Origin: Candidatus Aenigmatarchaeota archaeon
GTDB taxonomy: Archaea; Aenigmatarchaeota; Aenigmatarchaeia; GW2011-AR5
Direction: 5' to 3'
DNA length: 64,000 nucleotides
Assembly (NCBI GenBank): GCA_026397375.1
Contig: JAPLUZ010000022.1
Coordinates: forward strand, 24,234 to 88,233
A program made the position numbers and the translations under genes. The stretch's first letter is position 1. Every line of letters begins with the position of its first letter. Positions 2,741 to 29,023 of this stretch are shown here, in pieces. The notes under the pieces were generated by a model. The model worked only from the letters and a program-made list of their open reading frames with translations. It was not told where the DNA came from and ran no database searches.

Positions 2741-2992
2741 ATGCAAAGGGGGTTTTTGGTTGAGGGGGATGTTGTAGAAGTACAAGTAAAGGGCTTGGAA
2801 GATGGGCATACGGATCTTGTGAGGATTTATCATGTTATAGATGACGAGGTTTGCGCGTATCCTGAGAATATAAGTTTCCCGTGGATGAAGGATATTTGCA
2901 CCTACACGCTTGATGATGTTAAAAATGTCATTATTGGTCTTACTCCGCTGTTTCCCATGCAGTATCAGCCAATAACCAAGTATGTTAGGTAA
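2741..2992 (+). CDS. Hypothetical 83-aa protein in the mevalonate operon
   Basis: Starts 3 nt after the thiolase stop, same strand, unknown fold. Confidence 0.4.
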   Translation: MQRGFLVEGDVVEVQVKGLEDGHTDLVRIYHVIDDEVCAYPENISFPWMKDICTYTLDDVKNVIIGLTPLFPMQYQPITKYVR

Positions 2993-2997
2993 TAATT

Positions 2998-3225
2998 ATG
3001 ACATATAAACTTAGCTTTGACCCTGCGCAGCTGCCGCCCAGGAGTGAATGGAAAAGAACAACAGTATTGTTAAACGCTCCGTCCCGTGAACATATAGGGA
3101 TTTTGTCAGTTATGAAGGGCTGCGGTAAAAACGATGTTATACTTGATGCATTAACAAGATACATTAAAGAAGCTGGTTTTGATCCGTTCAAAAAACCAAA
3201 AAACATCATAGTAGAATATGAGTGA
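2998..3225 (+). CDS. Hypothetical 75-aa protein in the mevalonate operon
   Basis: Its stop overlaps the start of the DUF35 gene (ATGA). Confidence 0.4.
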   Translation: MTYKLSFDPAQLPPRSEWKRTTVLLNAPSREHIGILSVMKGCGKNDVILDALTRYIKEAGFDPFKKPKNIIVEYE

Positions 3226-3629: not shown

Positions 3630-3872
3630 TAGGTTAAGAAAGATTATTAGAAACTTCTCAAAATGTTGGCCATCTCAATTGTCATTAATAGTTGTTAACA
3701 GTTAAACTACATTTGCCAGAATTCTTAACAAAACAAGGAATTATTTGCAAAAACCAACACTGACCCTGTTGCTTCCTGTCAAAAGCAATAAATTAACCTC
3801 GATTTCTTATGCAAGATAGGATACCTCCTCTTCCTATAACAATGTTATATATAGTTAGTAGTATATGCGTGA

Positions 3873-3897
3873 GTGCACTGGAAATTATGGGGTGCTC
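3873..3897 (+). promoter_or_regulatory. ORB-like origin recognition box with downstream G-string (gtgCACTGGAAAttatGGGGtg)
   Basis: Resembles the archaeal ORB dyad core (TTCCAGTGGAAAC) followed by a GGGG string. Confidence 0.5.
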
Positions 3898-3930
3898 TAC
3901 TTTTTCTAACATAGACTTTGGAAAACATCT

Positions 3931-3943
3931 ATTTCCAGTGGAG
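3931..3943 (+). promoter_or_regulatory. Mini-ORB-like element aTTTCCAGTGGAG, inverted relative to the ORB at 3873-3897
   Basis: 11/13 match to the TTCCAGTGGAAAC mini-ORB core; forms an inverted pair with 3876-3884. Confidence 0.5.
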
Positions 3944-4040
3944 ATATTTTTATATACTCTCCATGAGAAATAGTGGTGTTAACGTGGATGGCTTTTTTGT
4001 TTACCAAAGGCTGGCTGTCCTTAACTAGTGGGGTGTTGGT

Positions 4041-5276
4041 GTGAAGTTAGAGACTACAATACAAAATAACATATTTTCGCAGTATCTTCAGAAAGAAAAC
4101 ATATTCAAGGATAAGAAATTTTTGACTTCTTCTTTTGTTCCAGACAAGATAACACACAGGGACGGTGAAATTAGGCAAATAGGCTCAATCCTGGCGCCTG
4201 TCCTGAAGGGCTACAGTGCCAATAACATATTCATCTACGGCACCTGCGGTACTGGCAAGACCATATGCGCCAAGTTCATTATCAACCAATTAAAGGAAAT
4301 TTCTGACAAAAATGGCCATAAAATAAAGGTCATCTACGTAAACTGCAAGATGAAGAGGGTAGCTGACACAGAATACAGGCTTTTTGCCCAGCTGCTCAAG
4401 GAATTAGGAGAGTATGTTCCAGATACAGGATTGCCAACAGACGTGCTTTACAGAAAGTTCTTTGAAAAAGTAGAAACAGCAAAGTGCACCCACATCCTTA
4501 TACTGGATGAAATAGACACCCTTGTAAAGAAGGTTGGCGACGAGTTTCTCTATAATTTCACAAGAATAAACCAGGAGCTAAAGCAGAGCCACCTCACAAT
4601 TGTAGGTATAACAAATGACCTGTCAATAAGAGACAACCTGGACCTCAGGGTAAAATCCTCGTTGTCTGAAGAGGAGATATTGTTCAAGCCGTACAATGCA
4701 AACCAGCTGAAGGACATATTAGAAGAAAGGGCGAACAGCGGCTTTATCTCAGGCGTTATAGAAGAACCGGTAATAGCAAAGTGCGCAGCCATAGCTGCAC
4801 AAGAACATGGGGACGCAAGAAGGGCGCTGGACCTGCTGCGTGTTGCCGGCGAGATAGCAGAGCGCTCTGGCGAAGACACGGTTACTGAAAAGCATGTTGA
4901 CATAGCAGAGCAAAAGATAGACCTGGACCGCGTAACAGAAACAGTAAAAGTGCAGCCAACCCAGTCACAGGCTGTGCTGTATTCAATAATTCTATTGAAA
5001 AACAAGATTAATGACCAGAAAAAATGGGTGGACAAAAGGCTTATGACAGGCGACGTTTTTGACCAATACTGCCAGATATGCGCTTCCAACGGCCTGAAGT
5101 CATTGACACAAAGAAGGGTTTCAGACCTGATAAGCGAATTGGACATGCTGGGCATAATAAATGCAAAGGTCATCAGCAACGGCCGCCATGGAAGGACAAG
5201 GGAGATAATACCAGCCATGAATGAAACAGTCCTTGGCAAAGTAACTACTTTCCTTTCTGAGAAGTTTTCGGTGTGA
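4041..5276 (+). CDS. cdc6: Orc1/Cdc6 replication initiator
   Basis: 411 aa; AAA+ Walker A GTCGTGKT, Walker B ILILDEID, C-terminal winged-helix region; GTG start; next to the candidate origin. Confidence 0.85.
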   Translation: MKLETTIQNNIFSQYLQKENIFKDKKFLTSSFVPDKITHRDGEIRQIGSILAPVLKGYSANNIFIYGTCGTGKTICAKFIINQLKEISDKNGHKIKVIYVNCKMKRVADTEYRLFAQLLKELGEYVPDTGLPTDVLYRKFFEKVETAKCTHILILDEIDTLVKKVGDEFLYNFTRINQELKQSHLTIVGITNDLSIRDNLDLRVKSSLSEEEILFKPYNANQLKDILEERANSGFISGVIEEPVIAKCAAIAAQEHGDARRALDLLRVAGEIAERSGEDTVTEKHVDIAEQKIDLDRVTETVKVQPTQSQAVLYSIILLKNKINDQKKWVDKRLMTGDVFDQYCQICASNGLKSLTQRRVSDLISELDMLGIINAKVISNGRHGRTREIIPAMNETVLGKVTTFLSEKFSV

Positions 5277-6364
5277 ATATGAAAGAAGAGGTAGTGAGGA
5301 AGTTTCTCCAGAAAGGGAGACTTCTTTCACCGGATATTTTAGAGAAGTTGGTCAGCGGACAGATAGACGAAACTATGGTACTCTATGATGATCTGGTTAT
5401 AACAAACGCCAGACAGAAAGACAAGGAAGAATTTACAATTTTAAAGAACATAACAAAAAAGAAGGAAGAAGCCAGCGCCGAGGATTTTGCCAAATTCTAC
5501 AGGTCAAAATACGAAAAGACCGTCAGTATTCTTGCAACACGCCTGCAGAAAGACTTCATCTCATTAAACAAAGTGGATAATTTTCGAAATGAAATATATG
5601 TAACAGGCATTGTCAAAGACGTGCAGAAAAAAGATGAAAAATTTATAATAGAGCTTGAAGATCTTACAGGCTCCGGAAAAATAGTTTTTGACGGCGAGCA
5701 GGACGTGGATTTGGACGATGTGGTGGCTGTCAGGTGCGTATCAGCCGGAAACATACTTTTTGGCAAGCAGATTATATATCCGGATGTTCCATTAAGACAG
5801 CCAAAGACCGGTTCTGGTAGTGCATGTTTTATCTCAGGTCTTAACCTACACGAAGCAGCAAAACAGGATGCTGAGAAATTCTTTAGATGGTTTTCAGAAC
5901 AGCACGCTGACCTGCTTTTTGTAGCTGGCGACATAGGCGACAAGGACGTTTTTGAGAAATATGTAAACATATACTGCTCTCAAAAAACTATCTTTGTTAT
6001 CCCTGGAAATAAAGATAAGGACGAGGAGTATCCGCAGACGCCTATAATTTTTGACAACAAAAACATCGTTTCAATAAGCAATCCAGGAATGGTGGAAGTG
6101 AATGGCCTGGTAATACTGCTTATTCATAACTTTAACACGGACATGCTGAAAAAGCGTTATCTCGGCCGATCAAAATGTATTATGGACGAGGACGAATTGG
6201 TATTAGATATAACGCCCGACATCGTTTGTCACAGCGCTGCGGACTCGCAGGTTACAAATTATAAGTCAATAACAATGGTTACTTCTGGGTCCCTGCTTGC
6301 CGACTTCAGGCCAGTTGTAATAGATTTTGGCACCAGAGAAGCACAGCAGAATAAAATAGAATAG
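5273..6364 (+). CDS. PolD small-subunit (DP1)-like protein with OB-fold and degenerate calcineurin-like phosphoesterase domain
   Basis: 363 aa; OB-like EDLTGSGKIVFDG; PDE motifs altered: SGLNLHE (motif I Asp/His lost), GDIGD kept, GNKD instead of GNHD, CHSA instead of GHVH; start overlaps the cdc6 stop (probable ATG at 5279). Confidence 0.55.
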   Translation: MNMKEEVVRKFLQKGRLLSPDILEKLVSGQIDETMVLYDDLVITNARQKDKEEFTILKNITKKKEEASAEDFAKFYRSKYEKTVSILATRLQKDFISLNKVDNFRNEIYVTGIVKDVQKKDEKFIIELEDLTGSGKIVFDGEQDVDLDDVVAVRCVSAGNILFGKQIIYPDVPLRQPKTGSGSACFISGLNLHEAAKQDAEKFFRWFSEQHADLLFVAGDIGDKDVFEKYVNIYCSQKTIFVIPGNKDKDEEYPQTPIIFDNKNIVSISNPGMVEVNGLVILLIHNFNTDMLKKRYLGRSKCIMDEDELVLDITPDIVCHSAADSQVTNYKSITMVTSGSLLADFRPVVIDFGTREAQQNKIE

Positions 6365-6385
6365 AAATAAAAGCACTGCAGACAT

Positions 6386-9088
6386 GTGATAAAAATGAAG
6401 TTTCAAATACTGGACATTGATTATTTTCTAAATAACAACAAGCCCGTTCTCAGAATATTCGGCAAACAGGAAGACGGGACATCGGTCTGCGGCATGTACG
6501 ACAAGCTGGAGCCATATTTTTATATAAGGCTTGGCGTATCATTTGACAAGGCACTGGATGAAATGGAGAAAATGAGGGAAATAAAGAATGTGGAGCAGGC
6601 AGAAAGGTTCGTGCCTCTCGGGTACCAAACAAGCAAGACAAAACTATTGAAGGTTACATTATGGAACCCGCAGGAAGTGCCAACCGTAAAATCAAAGCTA
6701 ATTGAATTGGGCATAGCAAAAGATATTTTCGAAGCGGACATACTTTTCAAGTATAGGTTTATGATTGATCACGGGTTCTATGGCATGCAATGGGTTGAAG
6801 CAGACGGAGAGTCGACAAAGACTGTAAAATCAAAGGTCAAAACCTATAAAATAAATTCCATAAAACCAATTGAAAAACAGGAGAACGCGCCAATAAGTTA
6901 CATGGCATTTGATATAGAATGCGTGCCGTCGGACCCAAAAAGACCGCTTGACGCCAGAAAAGATCCAATAGTGATGATATCCTTGTCTTTTGTGCCTGAA
7001 TACAGAAACAAAAAAGACATTGTACTTGTTGCAAAGCCTTTCACCGGCGAAGGGACAAAGGGATTTGCCAATGAGAAAGAGATGCTCGAAGAGTTTCTGA
7101 ATATTATAGAAACGTATGACCCGGATGTGCTCACAGGCTACAACATAAATTCCTTTGACTTTCCATACATTGTAGAAAGGCTGAAGCAGAACAAGCTCAA
7201 CGCATGCATAGGCAGGACAGACAAGGAGGCCTTCTCAAGAGAGTTTGGCATAACCAATGAATTTATTGTTACAGGCAGGGTCGTTGTCGACCCGTACCAG
7301 ATATTGAAAAGGGATCCGTGGGTAAAATTTCACAGGTACGACCTCAATACAGTGGCAAAGCAGCTGCTGAATGAAGAAAAACATGCAGTTGAATACGGAG
7401 AAATGGCAGGACTATGGAATGGAGGAAAAGAAGGCCTTTCCAGGCTTATAGAATACTGCAGAAGGGATGCTGATCTATCACTTAAACTGGTCTTGAACAG
7501 GGGAATGCTGGACAAATTCTTTGAACTGTCGAAGATATCAGGCCTGCTTTTACAGGACGTATTCGGCGGCCAGACAAGGCGCATAGAAGTAATGCTTTTG
7601 CATGAATTCAGGAAAAGGGATTTCGTAATGTCCGCCGCGCCGTCACGCAATGACATGAGCAGAAGAACAGGCGAAAGAAAGGACAACGAACTGAAAGGCG
7701 CAACTGTCCTGGAGCCGAAAAAGGGCCTGCACGCAGAAGGCTGTGTTCTGGTTTTGGATTTCAAAAGCCTGTACCCGTCTATAATGAGAACATTTAATGT
7801 ATCCCCTGACTCGGTATTGCTCGACAAAGAACTTATAGAAAAAGTGAAATCACACCAGTCACCTACAGGAACACATTTCGTTGATGGGGAAATTTACCAG
7901 GGAATATTTCCTTTTGTGCTTACAAAATTGCTCGATGCAAGAGGTGCAATAAAGAAGCAGATGAAGACAAGCGCAGGAGATGAGAAAAGGATATTGAATG
8001 CAAAACAGCTCGCGCTGAAAGATATATGCAATTCCTTTTACGGATACACAGGTTACATACGCGCCCGCCTGTACATGATAGACGTTGCCAATAGCATAAC
8101 AGGCTACGGCAGGGATAACATAGAAAAAACAAGAAAGCTGATTGAAGAAAACTTTGACGTGGAAGTTGTTTACGGAGACACGGATAGCATATTTTTGAAA
8201 ACAAAAACAACAAATCTTGAAGAAGCACAGGAACTTGGCACAAAAATATCCAAGTTCATTACAGAGAGGCTGCCGGGCTATCTGGAATTAGAATTCGAGA
8301 AAATATACAGGACATTCCTCATACTTTCAAAGAAGCGCTACGCAGGATGGAAATTTGAAAAGGTCGGAGACAAATGGAATGACGAAATGGAAATGCGCGG
8401 CATAGAAACCGTGCGCAGGGACTGGTGCATGCTTGTATCCGATGTGATGAACGAGGTCTTGAGAATTGTTCTGAAAGAAGGGGATCTGCAGGCGGCAATA
8501 ACATGCGTCAAGGATATTTTGGACAAGCTGCGCAAGGGAAAAATACCAATGGAAAAATTGACAATAATCAAAGGCATTACACAGAGCCTGGATGCATACA
8601 AAGGAACGCTGCCTCATATAGAACTTGCAAAAAAACTGGCTATAAGAAATCCACACGACCCGCCAAAGGTCGGGGACCGCCTGGAGTTTGTCATAATCAA
8701 GGGAAACCAGATGCTGTCAAAGAGGTCAGAAGACCCCAGATACGCAGAGCAGAATAACATACAGATAGATTCAGACTACTACATAAACAGCCAGCTATTC
8801 CCGCCAATAGAGAGAATATTTGCAGCCGTTGGCATTGATAAGAGCGAGATTTTCGGCAGCGGTCATCAGGCAAGCCTGGGTGACCTGCTTTCCGGAAAGA
8901 AGAGAACAATGAAACACGACATCGAAATAGAATACAAAAAACTGGAAGGAATAGAAGAGTTCATCTGCAAGAAATGCAACAAATCTTACAGGAGAATACC
9001 GCTTTCAGGCGTGTGTGAATGCGGCGGAGAATTGCTAATGAGCTACCACGGATCTGTAGGAGACAAAATAATTCTGGACAAAAAATAA
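6386..9088 (+). CDS. polB: Family B DNA polymerase (PolB), exonuclease and polymerase motifs intact
   Basis: 900 aa; Exo I FDIE, Exo II YNINSFDFPY, Exo III YCRRDA; Pol A DFKSLYPSI, Pol B KDICNSFYGYTGY, Pol C YGDTDS; C-terminal Cys4 zinc fingers; probable start ATG 6395. Confidence 0.9.
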   Translation: MIKMKFQILDIDYFLNNNKPVLRIFGKQEDGTSVCGMYDKLEPYFYIRLGVSFDKALDEMEKMREIKNVEQAERFVPLGYQTSKTKLLKVTLWNPQEVPTVKSKLIELGIAKDIFEADILFKYRFMIDHGFYGMQWVEADGESTKTVKSKVKTYKINSIKPIEKQENAPISYMAFDIECVPSDPKRPLDARKDPIVMISLSFVPEYRNKKDIVLVAKPFTGEGTKGFANEKEMLEEFLNIIETYDPDVLTGYNINSFDFPYIVERLKQNKLNACIGRTDKEAFSREFGITNEFIVTGRVVVDPYQILKRDPWVKFHRYDLNTVAKQLLNEEKHAVEYGEMAGLWNGGKEGLSRLIEYCRRDADLSLKLVLNRGMLDKFFELSKISGLLLQDVFGGQTRRIEVMLLHEFRKRDFVMSAAPSRNDMSRRTGERKDNELKGATVLEPKKGLHAEGCVLVLDFKSLYPSIMRTFNVSPDSVLLDKELIEKVKSHQSPTGTHFVDGEIYQGIFPFVLTKLLDARGAIKKQMKTSAGDEKRILNAKQLALKDICNSFYGYTGYIRARLYMIDVANSITGYGRDNIEKTRKLIEENFDVEVVYGDTDSIFLKTKTTNLEEAQELGTKISKFITERLPGYLELEFEKIYRTFLILSKKRYAGWKFEKVGDKWNDEMEMRGIETVRRDWCMLVSDVMNEVLRIVLKEGDLQAAITCVKDILDKLRKGKIPMEKLTIIKGITQSLDAYKGTLPHIELAKKLAIRNPHDPPKVGDRLEFVIIKGNQMLSKRSEDPRYAEQNNIQIDSDYYINSQLFPPIERIFAAVGIDKSEIFGSGHQASLGDLLSGKKRTMKHDIEIEYKKLEGIEEFICKKCNKSYRRIPLSGVCECGGELLMSYHGSVGDKIILDKK

Positions 9089-9128: not shown

Positions 9129-9377
9129 ATGGCACTTGAAATTGAGATGGCAACATACAACAAGGAACTACCGAGGCTACTATCACAAACAGGAAAACAC
9201 GTTCTTATTATTGAAGATCGTGTAATAGATACATATGTCGGCTATGACGCCGCTCTAAAAAGGGGCTATATGGAAGCTGGCATCGGCAAACCATTTTTGG
9301 TCAAAAAAATTGCCAAGGAAGATATACAATTTTTCACAAGAAATATTACTTCTGCTTCTGTTGTTTATACACAGTAG
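9129..9377 (+). CDS. Hypothetical small protein (82 aa)
   Basis: ORF only; K/E-rich, weak pattern GKHVLIIEDRVID. Confidence 0.3.
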   Translation: MALEIEMATYNKELPRLLSQTGKHVLIIEDRVIDTYVGYDAALKRGYMEAGIGKPFLVKKIAKEDIQFFTRNITSASVVYTQ

Positions 9378-9380
9378 AAA

Positions 9381-9662
9381 TCAGCCGATGTAATTTTCAT
9401 CGTCTTTTACAGGCTCTGCACTTTCTTCTGCCTGCTGTACAGGCTGCTCAACAACTTGCCCATCCAGTGCTGTTATTTTCTTCTTTCTTATGCGCTCTAC
9501 GGGACCTAGATATTTACTTGTGACCTTTTTGCCCATGCGGATTGATTCATAGTAGTACTTTCTTCCGTTTATTGTTTTCACGTGCCTGTTTGTCATAAGA
9601 ATCAAGTCAAATTTTCCAGTATTTAAGTATTTCTGGAGCGCAACTTCTAAATCAAAACCCAC
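9381..9662 (-). CDS. Hypothetical protein (93 aa) with acidic C-terminal tail
   Basis: ORF only. Confidence 0.25.
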   Translation of the reverse strand: MGFDLEVALQKYLNTGKFDLILMTNRHVKTINGRKYYYESIRMGKKVTSKYLGPVERIRKKKITALDGQVVEQPVQQAEESAEPVKDDENYIG

Positions 9663-9705: not shown

Positions 9706-9894
9706 TTAGATATCTCTTCCCTTAATTGTTGACCTTCTGTTTGCTTTTGATCTTTCAGCTGCGCGGTCAACCAACCTTAAAACTTCCTTGTGCAAGGCAT
9801 CTACGGCATCGCTACCAAGGTTCATTTTTTTCTTCTTTGCATATGCCCTTATCTTGCTTTTTACTACGAAAGAATCTGCCATTTTTATCACCAC
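9706..9894 (-). CDS. Small histone-fold-like DNA-binding protein (putative)
   Basis: 62 aa; LGSDAVDALHKEVLRLVDRAAERSKANRRSTIKGRDI aligns by eye with the alpha2-loop-alpha3 region of archaeal histones (...RKTIKAEDI). Confidence 0.3.
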   Translation of the reverse strand: MVIKMADSFVVKSKIRAYAKKKKMNLGSDAVDALHKEVLRLVDRAAERSKANRRSTIKGRDI

Positions 9895-26823: not shown

Positions 26824-27819
26824 TTAAAAAACTTTTAATTTTTTTATCATTTTAGGAAGAACAGGTAGTATTTTTCTTGGTATAAAGAACAAAGGAAAAA
26901 TGTAAAACCAGAAATTCGGATATTTCCAATGAAGTTTGAAAAGAAATAACATTCTTCTTAAATTTAATCTTCCTTTAAGTTTTGTATCGTATACCTCACA
27001 TTTCATGGAATATGAAATATAGTTGTTTACAAATTTGTATATCGCAATTGATCCATAATAATGTTTTACATCTAATAAAATTTTATGGAACCATATAATA
27101 TTTATGTCAAAAGAATCTAAATTATCAACTTCTTTATCAGCCCCTTTTTTATTTTCGTTGTATCTAGTTGTGTTAAAATATTGTGTTACAAGTATTTTAT
27201 CAGATGACAGAGCAGATTTGTTAATTCCGCACGCAGAAAGAACAATAAAATAATGAACTATTCCACTACCAATATAATTTTTTGTTTTGATAAATATTTT
27301 TTTTATAAGGTCCCTTCTAATTATGTTTATAGATACAAAGACAAGATAATGAGCTACTTTACCTAAAAATTCATTTGACGTAAGCTTTTCGGTACTGTTT
27401 ATATCTATTATTTTTTTATTAAAAACTTTACCGGTTTTGAAATTCTTTATTTTATAATTGACAGTGATGATACCGACTTTATTATTATTTTCTATCAATT
27501 TCTTTACATAATCTATAGCATCGTTATTCATTACATCATCATCACCAAAAAGCCATATGTACTTGCCTTTAGCCTTTTTAATGCCTGATAAAATATTTTT
27601 ATCAAATTCCAAATTTTTCCCATTTCTGAAATATCTAACGAAAGGATATTTTTTTGCGTATCCCTTACAGAGCAACATTGTATTGTCTTTTGAGGCGTTA
27701 TCAGAAATTAATATTTCTATACCTTTCGGATTTTGTGATACTATGCTATCTAAAGCCATTTTAAGATGATAGGATCTGTTATAAGTTGGTATAACAATAG
27801 AAATTTCTGGAGCTCTCAT
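26824..27819 (-). CDS. GT2-family glycosyltransferase
   Basis: ISIVIPTYNRSYHL...ILISDNASKDNT...FGDDD; very AT-rich gene. Confidence 0.65.
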   Translation of the reverse strand: MRAPEISIVIPTYNRSYHLKMALDSIVSQNPKGIEILISDNASKDNTMLLCKGYAKKYPFVRYFRNGKNLEFDKNILSGIKKAKGKYIWLFGDDDVMNNDAIDYVKKLIENNNKVGIITVNYKIKNFKTGKVFNKKIIDINSTEKLTSNEFLGKVAHYLVFVSINIIRRDLIKKIFIKTKNYIGSGIVHYFIVLSACGINKSALSSDKILVTQYFNTTRYNENKKGADKEVDNLDSFDINIIWFHKILLDVKHYYGSIAIYKFVNNYISYSMKCEVYDTKLKGRLNLRRMLFLFKLHWKYPNFWFYIFPLFFIPRKILPVLPKMIKKLKVF

Positions 27820-28030
27820 TAAGATGCACTTTAACGATATCTGTAACTTAACCGCTAGATCGCGTTCTTTATTACAATTGATAGAAATGTTTTTTAAGGT
27901 TATAAAATATGAAAATGAGTAAAATATAATCCAATAAAAAAGTGTCTTTTAGTACGAATAAAATATCGAGAAATTTCTCAGAAAAAAGAAATTTAAGAGT
28001 ATTTAAAAATTATATAGTAAAGTCAATAGA

Positions 28031-29023
28031 ATGAAGCATCCACTGGTTAGTTTTGTGATAATAGCTCTGAATGAAGAGAAAAACATAGGAAAATTAATCA
28101 AATCTATAAAAAACAACACTTACAAGGAAGTAGAAATAGTAGTCGTCGACGGCGGGTCGAAGGACAAAACAGTACAAATAGCAAGAAAGATGGGGGCAAG
28201 AATAATAAAAGAGATTGGAAATAAGGGGCCCGGAAATGCAAAAAACCAAGGGGTTTCTGCGGCAAAGGGTAAAATAGTAATACGAATAGATGCCGACTTA
28301 AAAGGCATAAACAAAAAGTTTATCGAAAATATAGTAAAAAGATTTAGTGAAAATGGAGTTATTGCTGTAGCACCAAGAAAACATGAAGCGCTATCGACAT
28401 TTTGGGAAAAAAGTATATACGAAAACCGGCAACTTACCCATTTTATATTTAATGCTATTAGAGGCAGATTTCAAACAATAGATAAGAAAACAGAATCATG
28501 GTACTTGTACCCGATTGCTATGTTAAGAAAAACATTTTTTGAGGTAGGTGGATATGATAATGTGGGGTTCGAAGATCGTTTATTTCTCAAAAAATTTGAC
28601 AAATACTGTAAAGAAAATAGCGTAAAATGTGTTCACGAATCTAAAAGTATAATGTATATGTCTCATCCTCAAACTCTTGACGAAATACTTAAACAATACG
28701 AGTGGTATTCCAGGGGTGCTATACAATACTTTCAACTGACTGGCGACAAGAAGGAATTTTTGCTTTTCTTGATTCTGCTTTCCCAGCCATTATTGATAGC
28801 AAGTGTATTTATGATTAATTTTCATATTTTATTCAAAGTTTTATCTGCTTTATATCTGATAAAAATTATTTTTCTGACTTTGTATTTTGTTATTTACAGA
28901 AAATTCCACGTTGTTGTCACACCTATACTTGATTTTTTTGGTGGGGTGTGGAAGTACTATGGCTTAATAAGGCTCGCAAAGATGAAAATTAAAAAATCCG
29001 ACAGAATATACTCTAGAGGCTGA
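28031..29023 (+). CDS. GT2-family glycosyltransferase with C-terminal TM helices
   Basis: VSFVIIALNEEKNI...EIVVVDGGSKDKT...IDAD. Confidence 0.65.
   Translation: MKHPLVSFVIIALNEEKNIGKLIKSIKNNTYKEVEIVVVDGGSKDKTVQIARKMGARIIKEIGNKGPGNAKNQGVSAAKGKIVIRIDADLKGINKKFIENIVKRFSENGVIAVAPRKHEALSTFWEKSIYENRQLTHFIFNAIRGRFQTIDKKTESWYLYPIAMLRKTFFEVGGYDNVGFEDRLFLKKFDKYCKENSVKCVHESKSIMYMSHPQTLDEILKQYEWYSRGAIQYFQLTGDKKEFLLFLILLSQPLLIASVFMINFHILFKVLSALYLIKIIFLTLYFVIYRKFHVVVTPILDFFGGVWKYYGLIRLAKMKIKKSDRIYSRG

Follow-up and report, generated by a model that had tools for sequence, protein, structure and literature searches.

Positions 3630 to 9088 of a 64,000-nucleotide stretch of contig JAPLUZ010000022.1 (the window, meaning that whole stretch), from a Candidatus Aenigmatarchaeota archaeon, very probably form an oriC-proximal replication operon of the Aenigmarchaeota (DPANN), in which the initiator gene orc1/cdc6 is followed by the genes for a two-subunit, eukaryote-like replicase that would replace PolD and would consist of a family B DNA polymerase (PolB) and a catalytically dead homologue of DP1, the small subunit of PolD. 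The system itself is already known, having been described for this lineage in 2020 and again in 2025, and what the locus adds is modest: the arrangement of cdc6, DP1 homologue and PolB as an operon at a candidate origin with origin recognition boxes (ORBs), the graded decay of the DP1 active site, and a public annotation that misses both proteins.

Gene layout

From 5' to 3' the region comprises a 411-bp spacer (3630-4040) and three closely packed plus-strand genes (Table 1). A preliminary description of this DNA had placed a non-coding stretch of about 400 bp, with AT-rich DNA around ORB-like elements, directly 5' of orc1/cdc6, and both points stand: the spacer contains no open reading frame (ORF) of at least 60 amino acids, and its AT content is 65%, against 59.5% for the window as a whole. 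The initiator gene was identified by TIGR02928 (408.9 bits, cut-off 181) and by the Pfam domains Cdc6_lid and Cdc6_C, while NF001625 scored slightly below its cut-off (479.6 against 501 bits); its start at 4041 lies 58 bp past the last ORB-like element. The overlap of the cdc6 stop with the start of the gene for a 363-aa protein, also described earlier, was seen again (TGA at 5274-5276, GTG at 5273), the start used by NCBI being a different one, an ATG at 5279, two bases 3' of the cdc6 stop. PolB begins either 21 nt (GTG, 6386) or 30 nt (ATG, 6395, the NCBI start) after the end of that gene.

The 363-aa protein is identical (100%) to MCX6815374.1 and the PolB is identical to MCX6815375.1, both encoded on a 103-kb contig of a Candidatus Aenigmarchaeota metagenome-assembled genome (MAG). 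At NCBI the former, the DP1 homologue, is named 'metallophosphoesterase' and the latter, a complete PolB, 'ribonuclease H-like domain-containing protein'; the public annotation of the MAG misses the functions of both.

The 363-aa protein is related to DP1

The NCBIfam DP1 models matched the 363-aa protein at E = 1e-28, the best of them (NF003118) with 100.5 bits against a cut-off of 445, so that the DP1 equivalog cut-off was not reached; a DP1 from Micrarchaeota, used as a control, passed the NCBIfam cut-off at 467 bits. In Pfam, Metallophos scored marginally above its cut-off (23.5 against 21.5 bits) and DNA_pol_E_B (PF04042) remained below its gathering threshold (21.7 against 29.1 bits), precomputed matches to PF04042 being present in many members of the protein's family. 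We built a family profile from 84 relatives, and when this was compared with the PDB, archaeal DP1 chains were the only significant matches (E = 1e-26), with no eukaryotic B subunit appearing at E ≤ 1.

An AlphaFold2 model computed on the family alignment (predicted local distance difference test score, pLDDT, 94.5) shows an OB fold and, after it, a calcineurin-like phosphoesterase domain. Its best Foldseek match was the DP1 of P. abyssi (E = 1e-24, template modelling (TM) score 0.73), followed by the B subunits of Pol epsilon, Pol zeta/delta and Pol alpha (E of about 1e-16 to 1e-17, TM 0.57-0.65); DP1 and eukaryotic B subunits made up the top 38 structural matches, and generic phosphoesterases appeared only at TM 0.3. 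Profiles and predicted fold thus support the assignment of the protein as a homologue with the DP1/B-subunit fold rather than a generic metallophosphoesterase. The DP1 architecture recognized in the preliminary description is borne out, and placement in a family other than DP1, which profile searches might have given, is not.

The first 48 residues, which contain the motif KGKLLTPxAL, were compared with the GINS-binding domain of DP1. A sub-profile searched against the PDB returned only spurious matches to the 'KLLTPEA' repeats of CagY, and the full-profile alignment to residues 2-29 of T. kodakarensis DP1 scored -0.8 bits.

Decay of the phosphoesterase site

The active-site residues were read from the family alignment together with canonical DP1. 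Both residues of motif I are lost, the Asp being replaced by G189 and the His by N191; motif III has lost its catalytic His, reading GNKD for GNHD; and the GHxH of motif V is lost along with a one-residue deletion. What is kept is the Asp of motif II, the Asn of motif III and the His of motif IV, three of the eight catalytic or metal-ligand residues, so that over the eight positions (motifs DxH, GD, GNHD, H and GHxH) the protein reads G, N, D, N, K, H, gap, A. The alteration of the metal-ligand motifs that had been noted by eye therefore persists under proper alignment, in which the catalytic residues are not conserved. A reading of motif I as 'NLH' was rejected; it came from a single-protein phmmer alignment and reflects a two-residue misalignment, the family profile and MAFFT giving G189/N191.

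Across the family the loss is graded. None of the 84 members (0/84) combines the canonical histidine of GNHD with the Asn, all seven metal ligands are kept in 20 of them, and the remainder show every degree of loss; judged by the alignment, the window copy is among the more decayed. Control DP1s from the same scan (Micrarchaeota and Hydrothermarchaeota, about 505 aa) mostly keep the four motifs DxHxG, GDxxD, GNHD and GHxH, two of the six deviating at one motif each (DLQIG in L052, GDHD in L042). Among the controls tested, the DP1 of L036 lies above the NCBIfam cut-off, and the genes downstream in L036 and L039 are bona fide DP2 (1324 and 1299 bits, cut-off 1269). These comparisons support the view that the 363-aa protein is a DP1 homologue with a decayed phosphoesterase site that is predicted to be dead, and putatively a non-catalytic B subunit.

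PolB and its C-terminal zinc module

As the preliminary description had it, a complete PolB directly follows the DP1-like gene: the protein matched Pfam DNA_pol_B (1.4e-114) and DNA_pol_B_exo1 (4.6e-37), and intact Exo I-III and Pol A/B/C motifs can be seen in its translation (FDIE, NSFDFPY, YCRRDAD; DFKSLYPS, KDICNSFYGY, YGDTDS). Its similarity to Thermococcales PolB and to the catalytic subunit of Pol delta is approximately equal, at roughly 1e-106 each. The alignment with Thermococcales PolB stops at about residue 836, and the last 60 or so residues therefore constitute an extension.

Residues 858-890 of this extension (EEFICKKCNKSYRRIPLSGVCECGGELL) hold four cysteines (C861, C864, C877 and C879) in a single CxxC...CxC motif, with a YRRIP loop. 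They matched positions 1013-1046 of the DP2 model TIGR00354 (E = 3e-6) and residues 1127-1159 of T. kodakarensis DP2 (E = 3.4e-4). Thirty related PolBs share the module in strongly conserved form (FvCkkCxKsYRRmPLxGxCeCGGE), and a family profile of the PolB tail matched only the 32-residue Zn-III region of Micrarchaeota DP2. The zinc module takes up roughly the final 40 residues of PolB. By these matches the Cys4 module, which the preliminary description had overlooked, is homologous to Zn-III of DP2. In PolD, Zn-III of DP2, with its KxRRxP loop, docks into the groove between the OB and phosphodiesterase (PDE) domains of DP1 (PMC6355029). Because the PolB ends in a DP1-docking module of this type, the argument for a pairing of an inactivated DP1 with PolB, made earlier from adjacency and motif loss, is supported and is stronger than was realized; the arrangement is not new, having been reported in PMC7544198 and PMC12680538.

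Between the canonical end of the thumb and the zinc module, PolB residues 828-835 (8867-8890) read QASLGDLL, with RQxSLxDI(L/M) in relatives, and appear to resemble a PCNA-interacting protein (PIP)-like tail. If it is one, the zinc module would have been added after the original C-terminus of the polymerase.

In L013, L016, L019, L021, L048 and L053 the PolB match falls into two parts about 1.2-1.4 kb apart, with a break near motif B, at about residue 550-600, that suggests inteins in these genes. The window PolB has no insertion of this kind.

Gene order in related genomes

A scan limited to one genome per species gave 55 loci, in which gene order was counted by tblastn; the nearest loci all come from Aenigmatarchaeota MAGs. 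Of the 34 close relatives, 33 have cdc6 immediately 5' of the DP1-like gene. The PolB with its C-terminal domain (CTD) follows that gene immediately and on the same strand in 22 of the 34; it is close by in a rearranged order in 4, missing from the flank in 5 and past the contig end in 3. Eight further loci have highly divergent, fully degenerate DP1-like genes, and PolB is directly downstream in all 8, the C-terminal module being detectable in every one but L044 (7/8). Synteny extends to the thiolase and DUF35 genes on the upstream side and, downstream, to a gene for a 395-aa membrane protein. The order cdc6, DP1-like gene, PolB-CTD recurs in most of the related Aenigmatarchaeota loci.

The same three genes stand in order in L038 (7808-12628), from a MAG labelled Nanoarchaeota, where the DP1-like gene is degenerate and the PolB has a CxxC...CxxC tail. 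Either the system reaches beyond Aenigmatarchaeota or the label is loose.

The candidate origin

The preliminary description had rested on an inverted pair of ORB-like elements in the spacer, and CACTGGAAAT (3876-3885) and ATTTCCAGTG (3931-3940) do form a perfect 10-nt inverted repeat; since we estimate roughly that such a repeat would arise by chance in 461 bp with a probability of about 0.1, the repeat by itself is weak evidence. In other genomes the ORB consensus 5' of cdc6 is TCCAnnGGAAA, 4 nt and GGGGTGT (TCCAnnGGAAAnnnnGGGGTG), a sequence from which the window element at 3874-3894 differs by one mismatch. With an ORB matrix made from ten sites, all from other genomes and none from the window, the matches at 3759-3784(-), 3872-3897(+) and 3958-3983(+) ranked 1, 2 and 4 over the 64 kb. 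The dyad pattern alone occurred 11 times in the window, against 9.7 expected, and is not enriched; only the full matrix and the clustering of its matches are informative.

When leave-one-out matrices were used, 35 of 39 loci had their top match no more than 650 bp 5' of cdc6, where 1.9 would be expected. An inverted layout, consisting of a minus-strand ORB, an AT-rich gap and a plus-strand ORB, was found in 26 related loci, the ORBs being about 100 bp apart and the pair about 170-280 bp upstream of cdc6; the gap, 97.5 bp long at the median, has an AT content of 74%, the locus mean being 59%. Of the pair proposed earlier, the element at 3872-3897 stands as an ORB, and its conserved partner is the minus-strand element at 3759-3784; the supposed partner at 3931-3943 is a mini-ORB that has the dyad but no G-string. 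Within the AT-rich segment between the two arms of the conserved pair, a core of about 30 nt (3835-3866) reaches 83% AT.

The mini-ORB (3922-3944) and the segment 3958-3980 form a 23-nt inverted repeat that is 74% complementary, L027 and L030 have the dyad of the mini-ORB (TTTCCAGTGGAGA / TTTCCACTGGAGA) equally far from cdc6, and a weaker third plus-strand ORB about 80 bp 5' of cdc6 recurs in related loci. Together the mini-ORB and the weak ORB at 3958-3983 bracket a TATA-like TTTTTATATA box (3946-3955), possibly the TATA element of cdc6, and this placement suggests that cdc6 may be autoregulated.

Archaeal origins are defined in PMC4010727 by inverted ORB repeats on either side of an AT-rich segment near cdc6. 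The comparison of sequences supports the view that the spacer has the anatomy of such an ORB/Orc1 origin, conserved in related genomes, and the ORBs are likely binding sites for Orc1/Cdc6.

Table 1. Features of the replication region, in window coordinates
Feature	Position	Strand	Basis or remark
Gene-free spacer; candidate oriC	3630..4040	.	No ORF of at least 60 aa; AT 65%; 3 of the 4 best ORB-matrix matches in the window
Predicted ORB (dyad and G-string), left arm of the conserved inverted pair	3759..3784	-	Best matrix match in the window, score 10.4
AT-rich stretch separating the two arms; candidate unwinding element	3785..3871	.	87 bp, AT 68%
Predicted ORB TGCACTGGAAATTATGGGGTG, right arm; first element of the preliminary description	3872..3897	+	One mismatch to TCCAnnGGAAAnnnnGGGGTG; second-best matrix match
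Mini-ORB, perfect dyad TCCACTGGAAA, without G-string; second element of the preliminary description	3922..3944	-	Exact TCCANTGGARA match on both strands
Weak third ORB TCCATGAGAAATAGTGGTGTT	3958..3983	+	Fourth-best matrix match in the window; three mismatches to consensus
orc1/cdc6 initiator, 411 aa	4041..5276	+	TIGR02928; NF001625; Pfam Cdc6_lid, Cdc6_C
Predicted inactivated DP1 homologue, 363 aa; putative non-catalytic B subunit of PolB	5273..6364	+	Profile and fold match to DP1
Family B DNA polymerase, 900 aa	6386..9088	+	Pfam DNA_pol_B, DNA_pol_B_exo1
PolB C-terminal Cys4 module, Zn-III-like	8957..9055	+	Matches to the DP2 model and T. kodakarensis DP2

Neighbouring sequences

A 93-aa ORF at 9381-9662(-) has homologues directly 3' of PolB and on the PolB strand in 15 related loci (L005, 13822-14034, and L021, 6972-7211, among them), and these could be a further conserved member or partner of the replication cluster; in the window the ORF is inverted and is separated from PolB by a non-conserved 82-aa ORF (9129-9377). 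Next to it, at 9706-9894(-), is a basic 62-aa ORF (MADSFVVKSKIRAYAKKKKMNLGSDAVDALHKEV...) that is conserved beside the 93-aa ORF in 9 related loci and that looks by eye like a histone-fold or other DNA-binding protein. Upstream, two small plus-strand ORFs (83 and 75 aa, 2741-3225) lie between the thiolase gene and the DUF35 OB-fold gene; in relatives including L001 these two genes abut, so that the window appears to carry an insertion of about 480 bp in the HMG-CoA synthase/thiolase/DUF35 cluster. No Pfam match at E ≤ 5 was found for the small ORFs at 9129-9377, 9381-9662, 9706-9894, 2741-2992 and 2998-3225.

Farther away, GC content falls sharply from about 0.40 to 0.26-0.33 at 27001-29000. 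The region around it (23-47 kb) holds glycosyltransferase, polysaccharide-synthesis and aminotransferase genes and may be a surface-glycan island gained by horizontal transfer. No RNA family was found when the window was scanned with Rfam, and promoter and terminator scans, run without an archaeal promoter model, gave no more sites than shuffled sequence.

A proposed mechanism and its alternatives

We propose that Cdc6, once bound at the ORBs, opens the AT-rich segment between them, the weaker ORBs overlapping the likely cdc6 promoter. The Zn-III module of PolB would dock, through its RRxP loop, into the OB/PDE groove of the dead DP1, in the manner of DP2 on DP1 in PolD and of the C-terminal domains of eukaryotic Pol alpha, delta and epsilon on their B subunits, and the resulting two-subunit replicase would stand in for PolD in this lineage. 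Proofreading would be supplied by the exonuclease of PolB, so that the nuclease of DP1 would become dispensable and, with selection relaxed, would decay; the graded decay across the DP1-like family is consistent with such relaxed selection.

Several observations weigh against this proposal. The homology of the PolB tail to DP2 covers only about 32 residues, the C-terminal helical bundle of DP2 was not detected by the tail profile, and the CTD of Aenigmatarchaeota has been called degenerate (PMC12680538). Since 20 of the 84 relatives keep all seven ligands, some members of the family may bind metal or retain residual activity. Five loci (L018, L025, L027, L028 and L034) retain the ORB spacer together with cdc6 and the DP1-like gene and have no PolB in the downstream flank that was covered (8-10 kb; about 3 kb in L025), from which it follows that co-transcription is not obligatory, that PolB must be encoded elsewhere in these genomes, and that the operon is not universal in the phylum. 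The window ORBs are degenerate, with scores of 6-10 against 20-36 in relatives, and the 1-kb GC-skew profile shows neither an inflection nor a change of sign near 3.9 kb, with only 3.9 kb of sequence to the left of the site. Finally, the absence of DP2 holds only for the 64-kb window, where there is no DP2-sized or DP2-like ORF.

We weighed three other explanations. Were the 363-aa protein an ordinary, active calcineurin-like metallophosphoesterase that merely adjoins replication genes, its NCBI name, the Pfam result, with Metallophos above its cut-off and DNA_pol_E_B below, and the retained Asp, Asn and His of motifs II, III and IV would all be accounted for. Against this stand the full OB and PDE architecture, the composition of the top 38 structural matches with generic phosphoesterases far behind, the profile match to DP1, the loss of five of the eight catalytic or ligand positions, and the synteny with cdc6 and PolB-CTD conserved across the phylum, and we regard the explanation as largely refuted and give it hardly any credence. 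That the DP1-like protein works instead with a PolD encoded elsewhere, its adjacency to PolB being incidental, could appeal to our view of only 64 kb of the genome and to the five loci in which the DP1-like gene has no adjacent PolB; we find it very improbable, given that the window has no ORF resembling DP2, that DP2 is reported missing from Aenigmarchaeota (PMC7544198, PMC12680538), that PolB itself bears the Zn-III docking module, conserved in 30 loci, and that the canonical DP1-DP2 pairs from the same scan have a DP1 of about 505 aa with mostly intact motifs.

It is somewhat less improbable, though still unlikely in our estimation, that the ORB cluster serves only as an autoregulatory operator for Orc1/Cdc6 at the cdc6 promoter, with the chromosome firing elsewhere or needing no origin. 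The mini-ORB and weak ORB that flank the possible TATA element would fit an operator, as would the lack of a GC-skew inflection in the window, and origin-independent replication has been documented in other archaea (PMC5663688, PMC4010727). The conserved feature, however, is the inverted ORB pair around an AT-rich gap of some 90 bp in 26 genomes, as in mapped archaeal origins (PMC4010727), and the roles of operator and origin are mutually compatible. We prefer the reading of the region as an origin-proximal operon for a PolB and dead DP1 replicase.

Relation to known systems

Kazlauskas et al. (2020) described an archaeal PolB group, B6-aenigma1, with one motif resembling zfIII of DP2 and with an inactive DP1 in the same genomes, DP2 being missing from most Aenigmarchaeota (PMC7544198). 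In 2025 a study in Nat Ecol Evol identified Aenigmatarchaeota and Baldrarchaeia as the only archaeal lineages without DP2 that still have DP1, and reported from AlphaFold3 and yeast two-hybrid work that DP1 binds PolB-DP2CTD in both; the Baldrarchaeia enzyme, and not that of Aenigmatarchaeota, was placed closest to eukaryotes (PMC12680538). The window shares with the Aenigmarchaeota system of these papers (PMC7544198, PMC12680538) the phylum, the single C-terminal Cys4 motif nearest to Zn-III of DP2, and the degenerate DP1 site, and differs in nothing essential; by these sequence features the locus belongs to the published PolB-DP2CTD and DP1 system and represents another genome of the described group. 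Gene order, operon structure and origin context in Aenigmatarchaeota were not found by keyword in the main texts of PMC7544198 and PMC12680538, and neither were the graded loss of active-site residues over the family or the gap in the public annotation of this MAG.

With the PolD island of Pyrococcus and other Euryarchaea (PMC2643942, PMC6355029) the locus shares the order of origin, cdc6, DP1 homologue and catalytic subunit, and with PolD itself the OB and PDE fold of the small subunit and a catalytic subunit that ends in a Zn-III/RRxP docking element. It differs in that the catalytic subunit is a B-family polymerase rather than the double-psi beta-barrel DP2, that no more than about 32 residues of the DP2 C-terminal domain can be recognized, and that the small subunit is some 140 aa shorter and predicted to be dead. 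Eukaryotic Pol alpha, delta, epsilon and zeta likewise combine a B-family catalytic subunit carrying a C-terminal zinc module with an inactivated B subunit of the DP1 fold, a likeness that for the window holds at the level of sequence, and the fold of the 363-aa protein matches p50/Pol31, p59/Dpb2 and the Pol alpha B subunit at about 1e-16 to 1e-17. The window protein is nevertheless nearer to DP1 in both TM score (0.73 against 0.57-0.65) and profile matches, of which none to a eukaryotic protein appeared at E ≤ 1, and its PolB has one Cys4 motif instead of CysA and CysB and no helical-bundle CTD.

The spacer, for its part, resembles archaeal oriC1-type origins in its position beside cdc6, in the TCCAnnGGAAA dyad with a GGGG(T) string, and in the inverted arrangement around an AT-rich segment (definition from PMC4010727); compared with those of its relatives, its ORBs are degenerate.

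Evolutionary implications

An archaeal replicase of eukaryotic build bears on the origin of Pol alpha, delta and epsilon from parts of PolB and PolD. That point has already been made for the lineage with interaction data, and our finding therefore confirms it rather than discovers it. The operon and origin context supports a positional swap of DP2 for PolB: linkage of oriC, cdc6 and DP1 is conserved in Euryarchaea (PMC2643942), and the gene order of the window is that of the euryarchaeal oriC-cdc6-DP1(-DP2) island with PolB-CTD in the place of DP2, a synteny that suggests in-place recombination.

We tentatively suggest, inclining slightly towards doubt, that a complete PolB gene, perhaps bringing a PIP-like tail of its own (QASLGDLL), recombined into dp2 of an ancestral oriC-cdc6-dp1-dp2 island, with only the end of dp2 that codes for Zn-III being kept, and that the DP1 site has since been decaying independently and unequally across Aenigmatarchaeota lineages. 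The graded loss of residues over the 84 relatives provides material on how the subunit became inactive and, if this scenario is true, the family would be a natural time series of the change from a proofreading subunit to a B subunit with a structural role only, a change that would parallel the one in eukaryotes.

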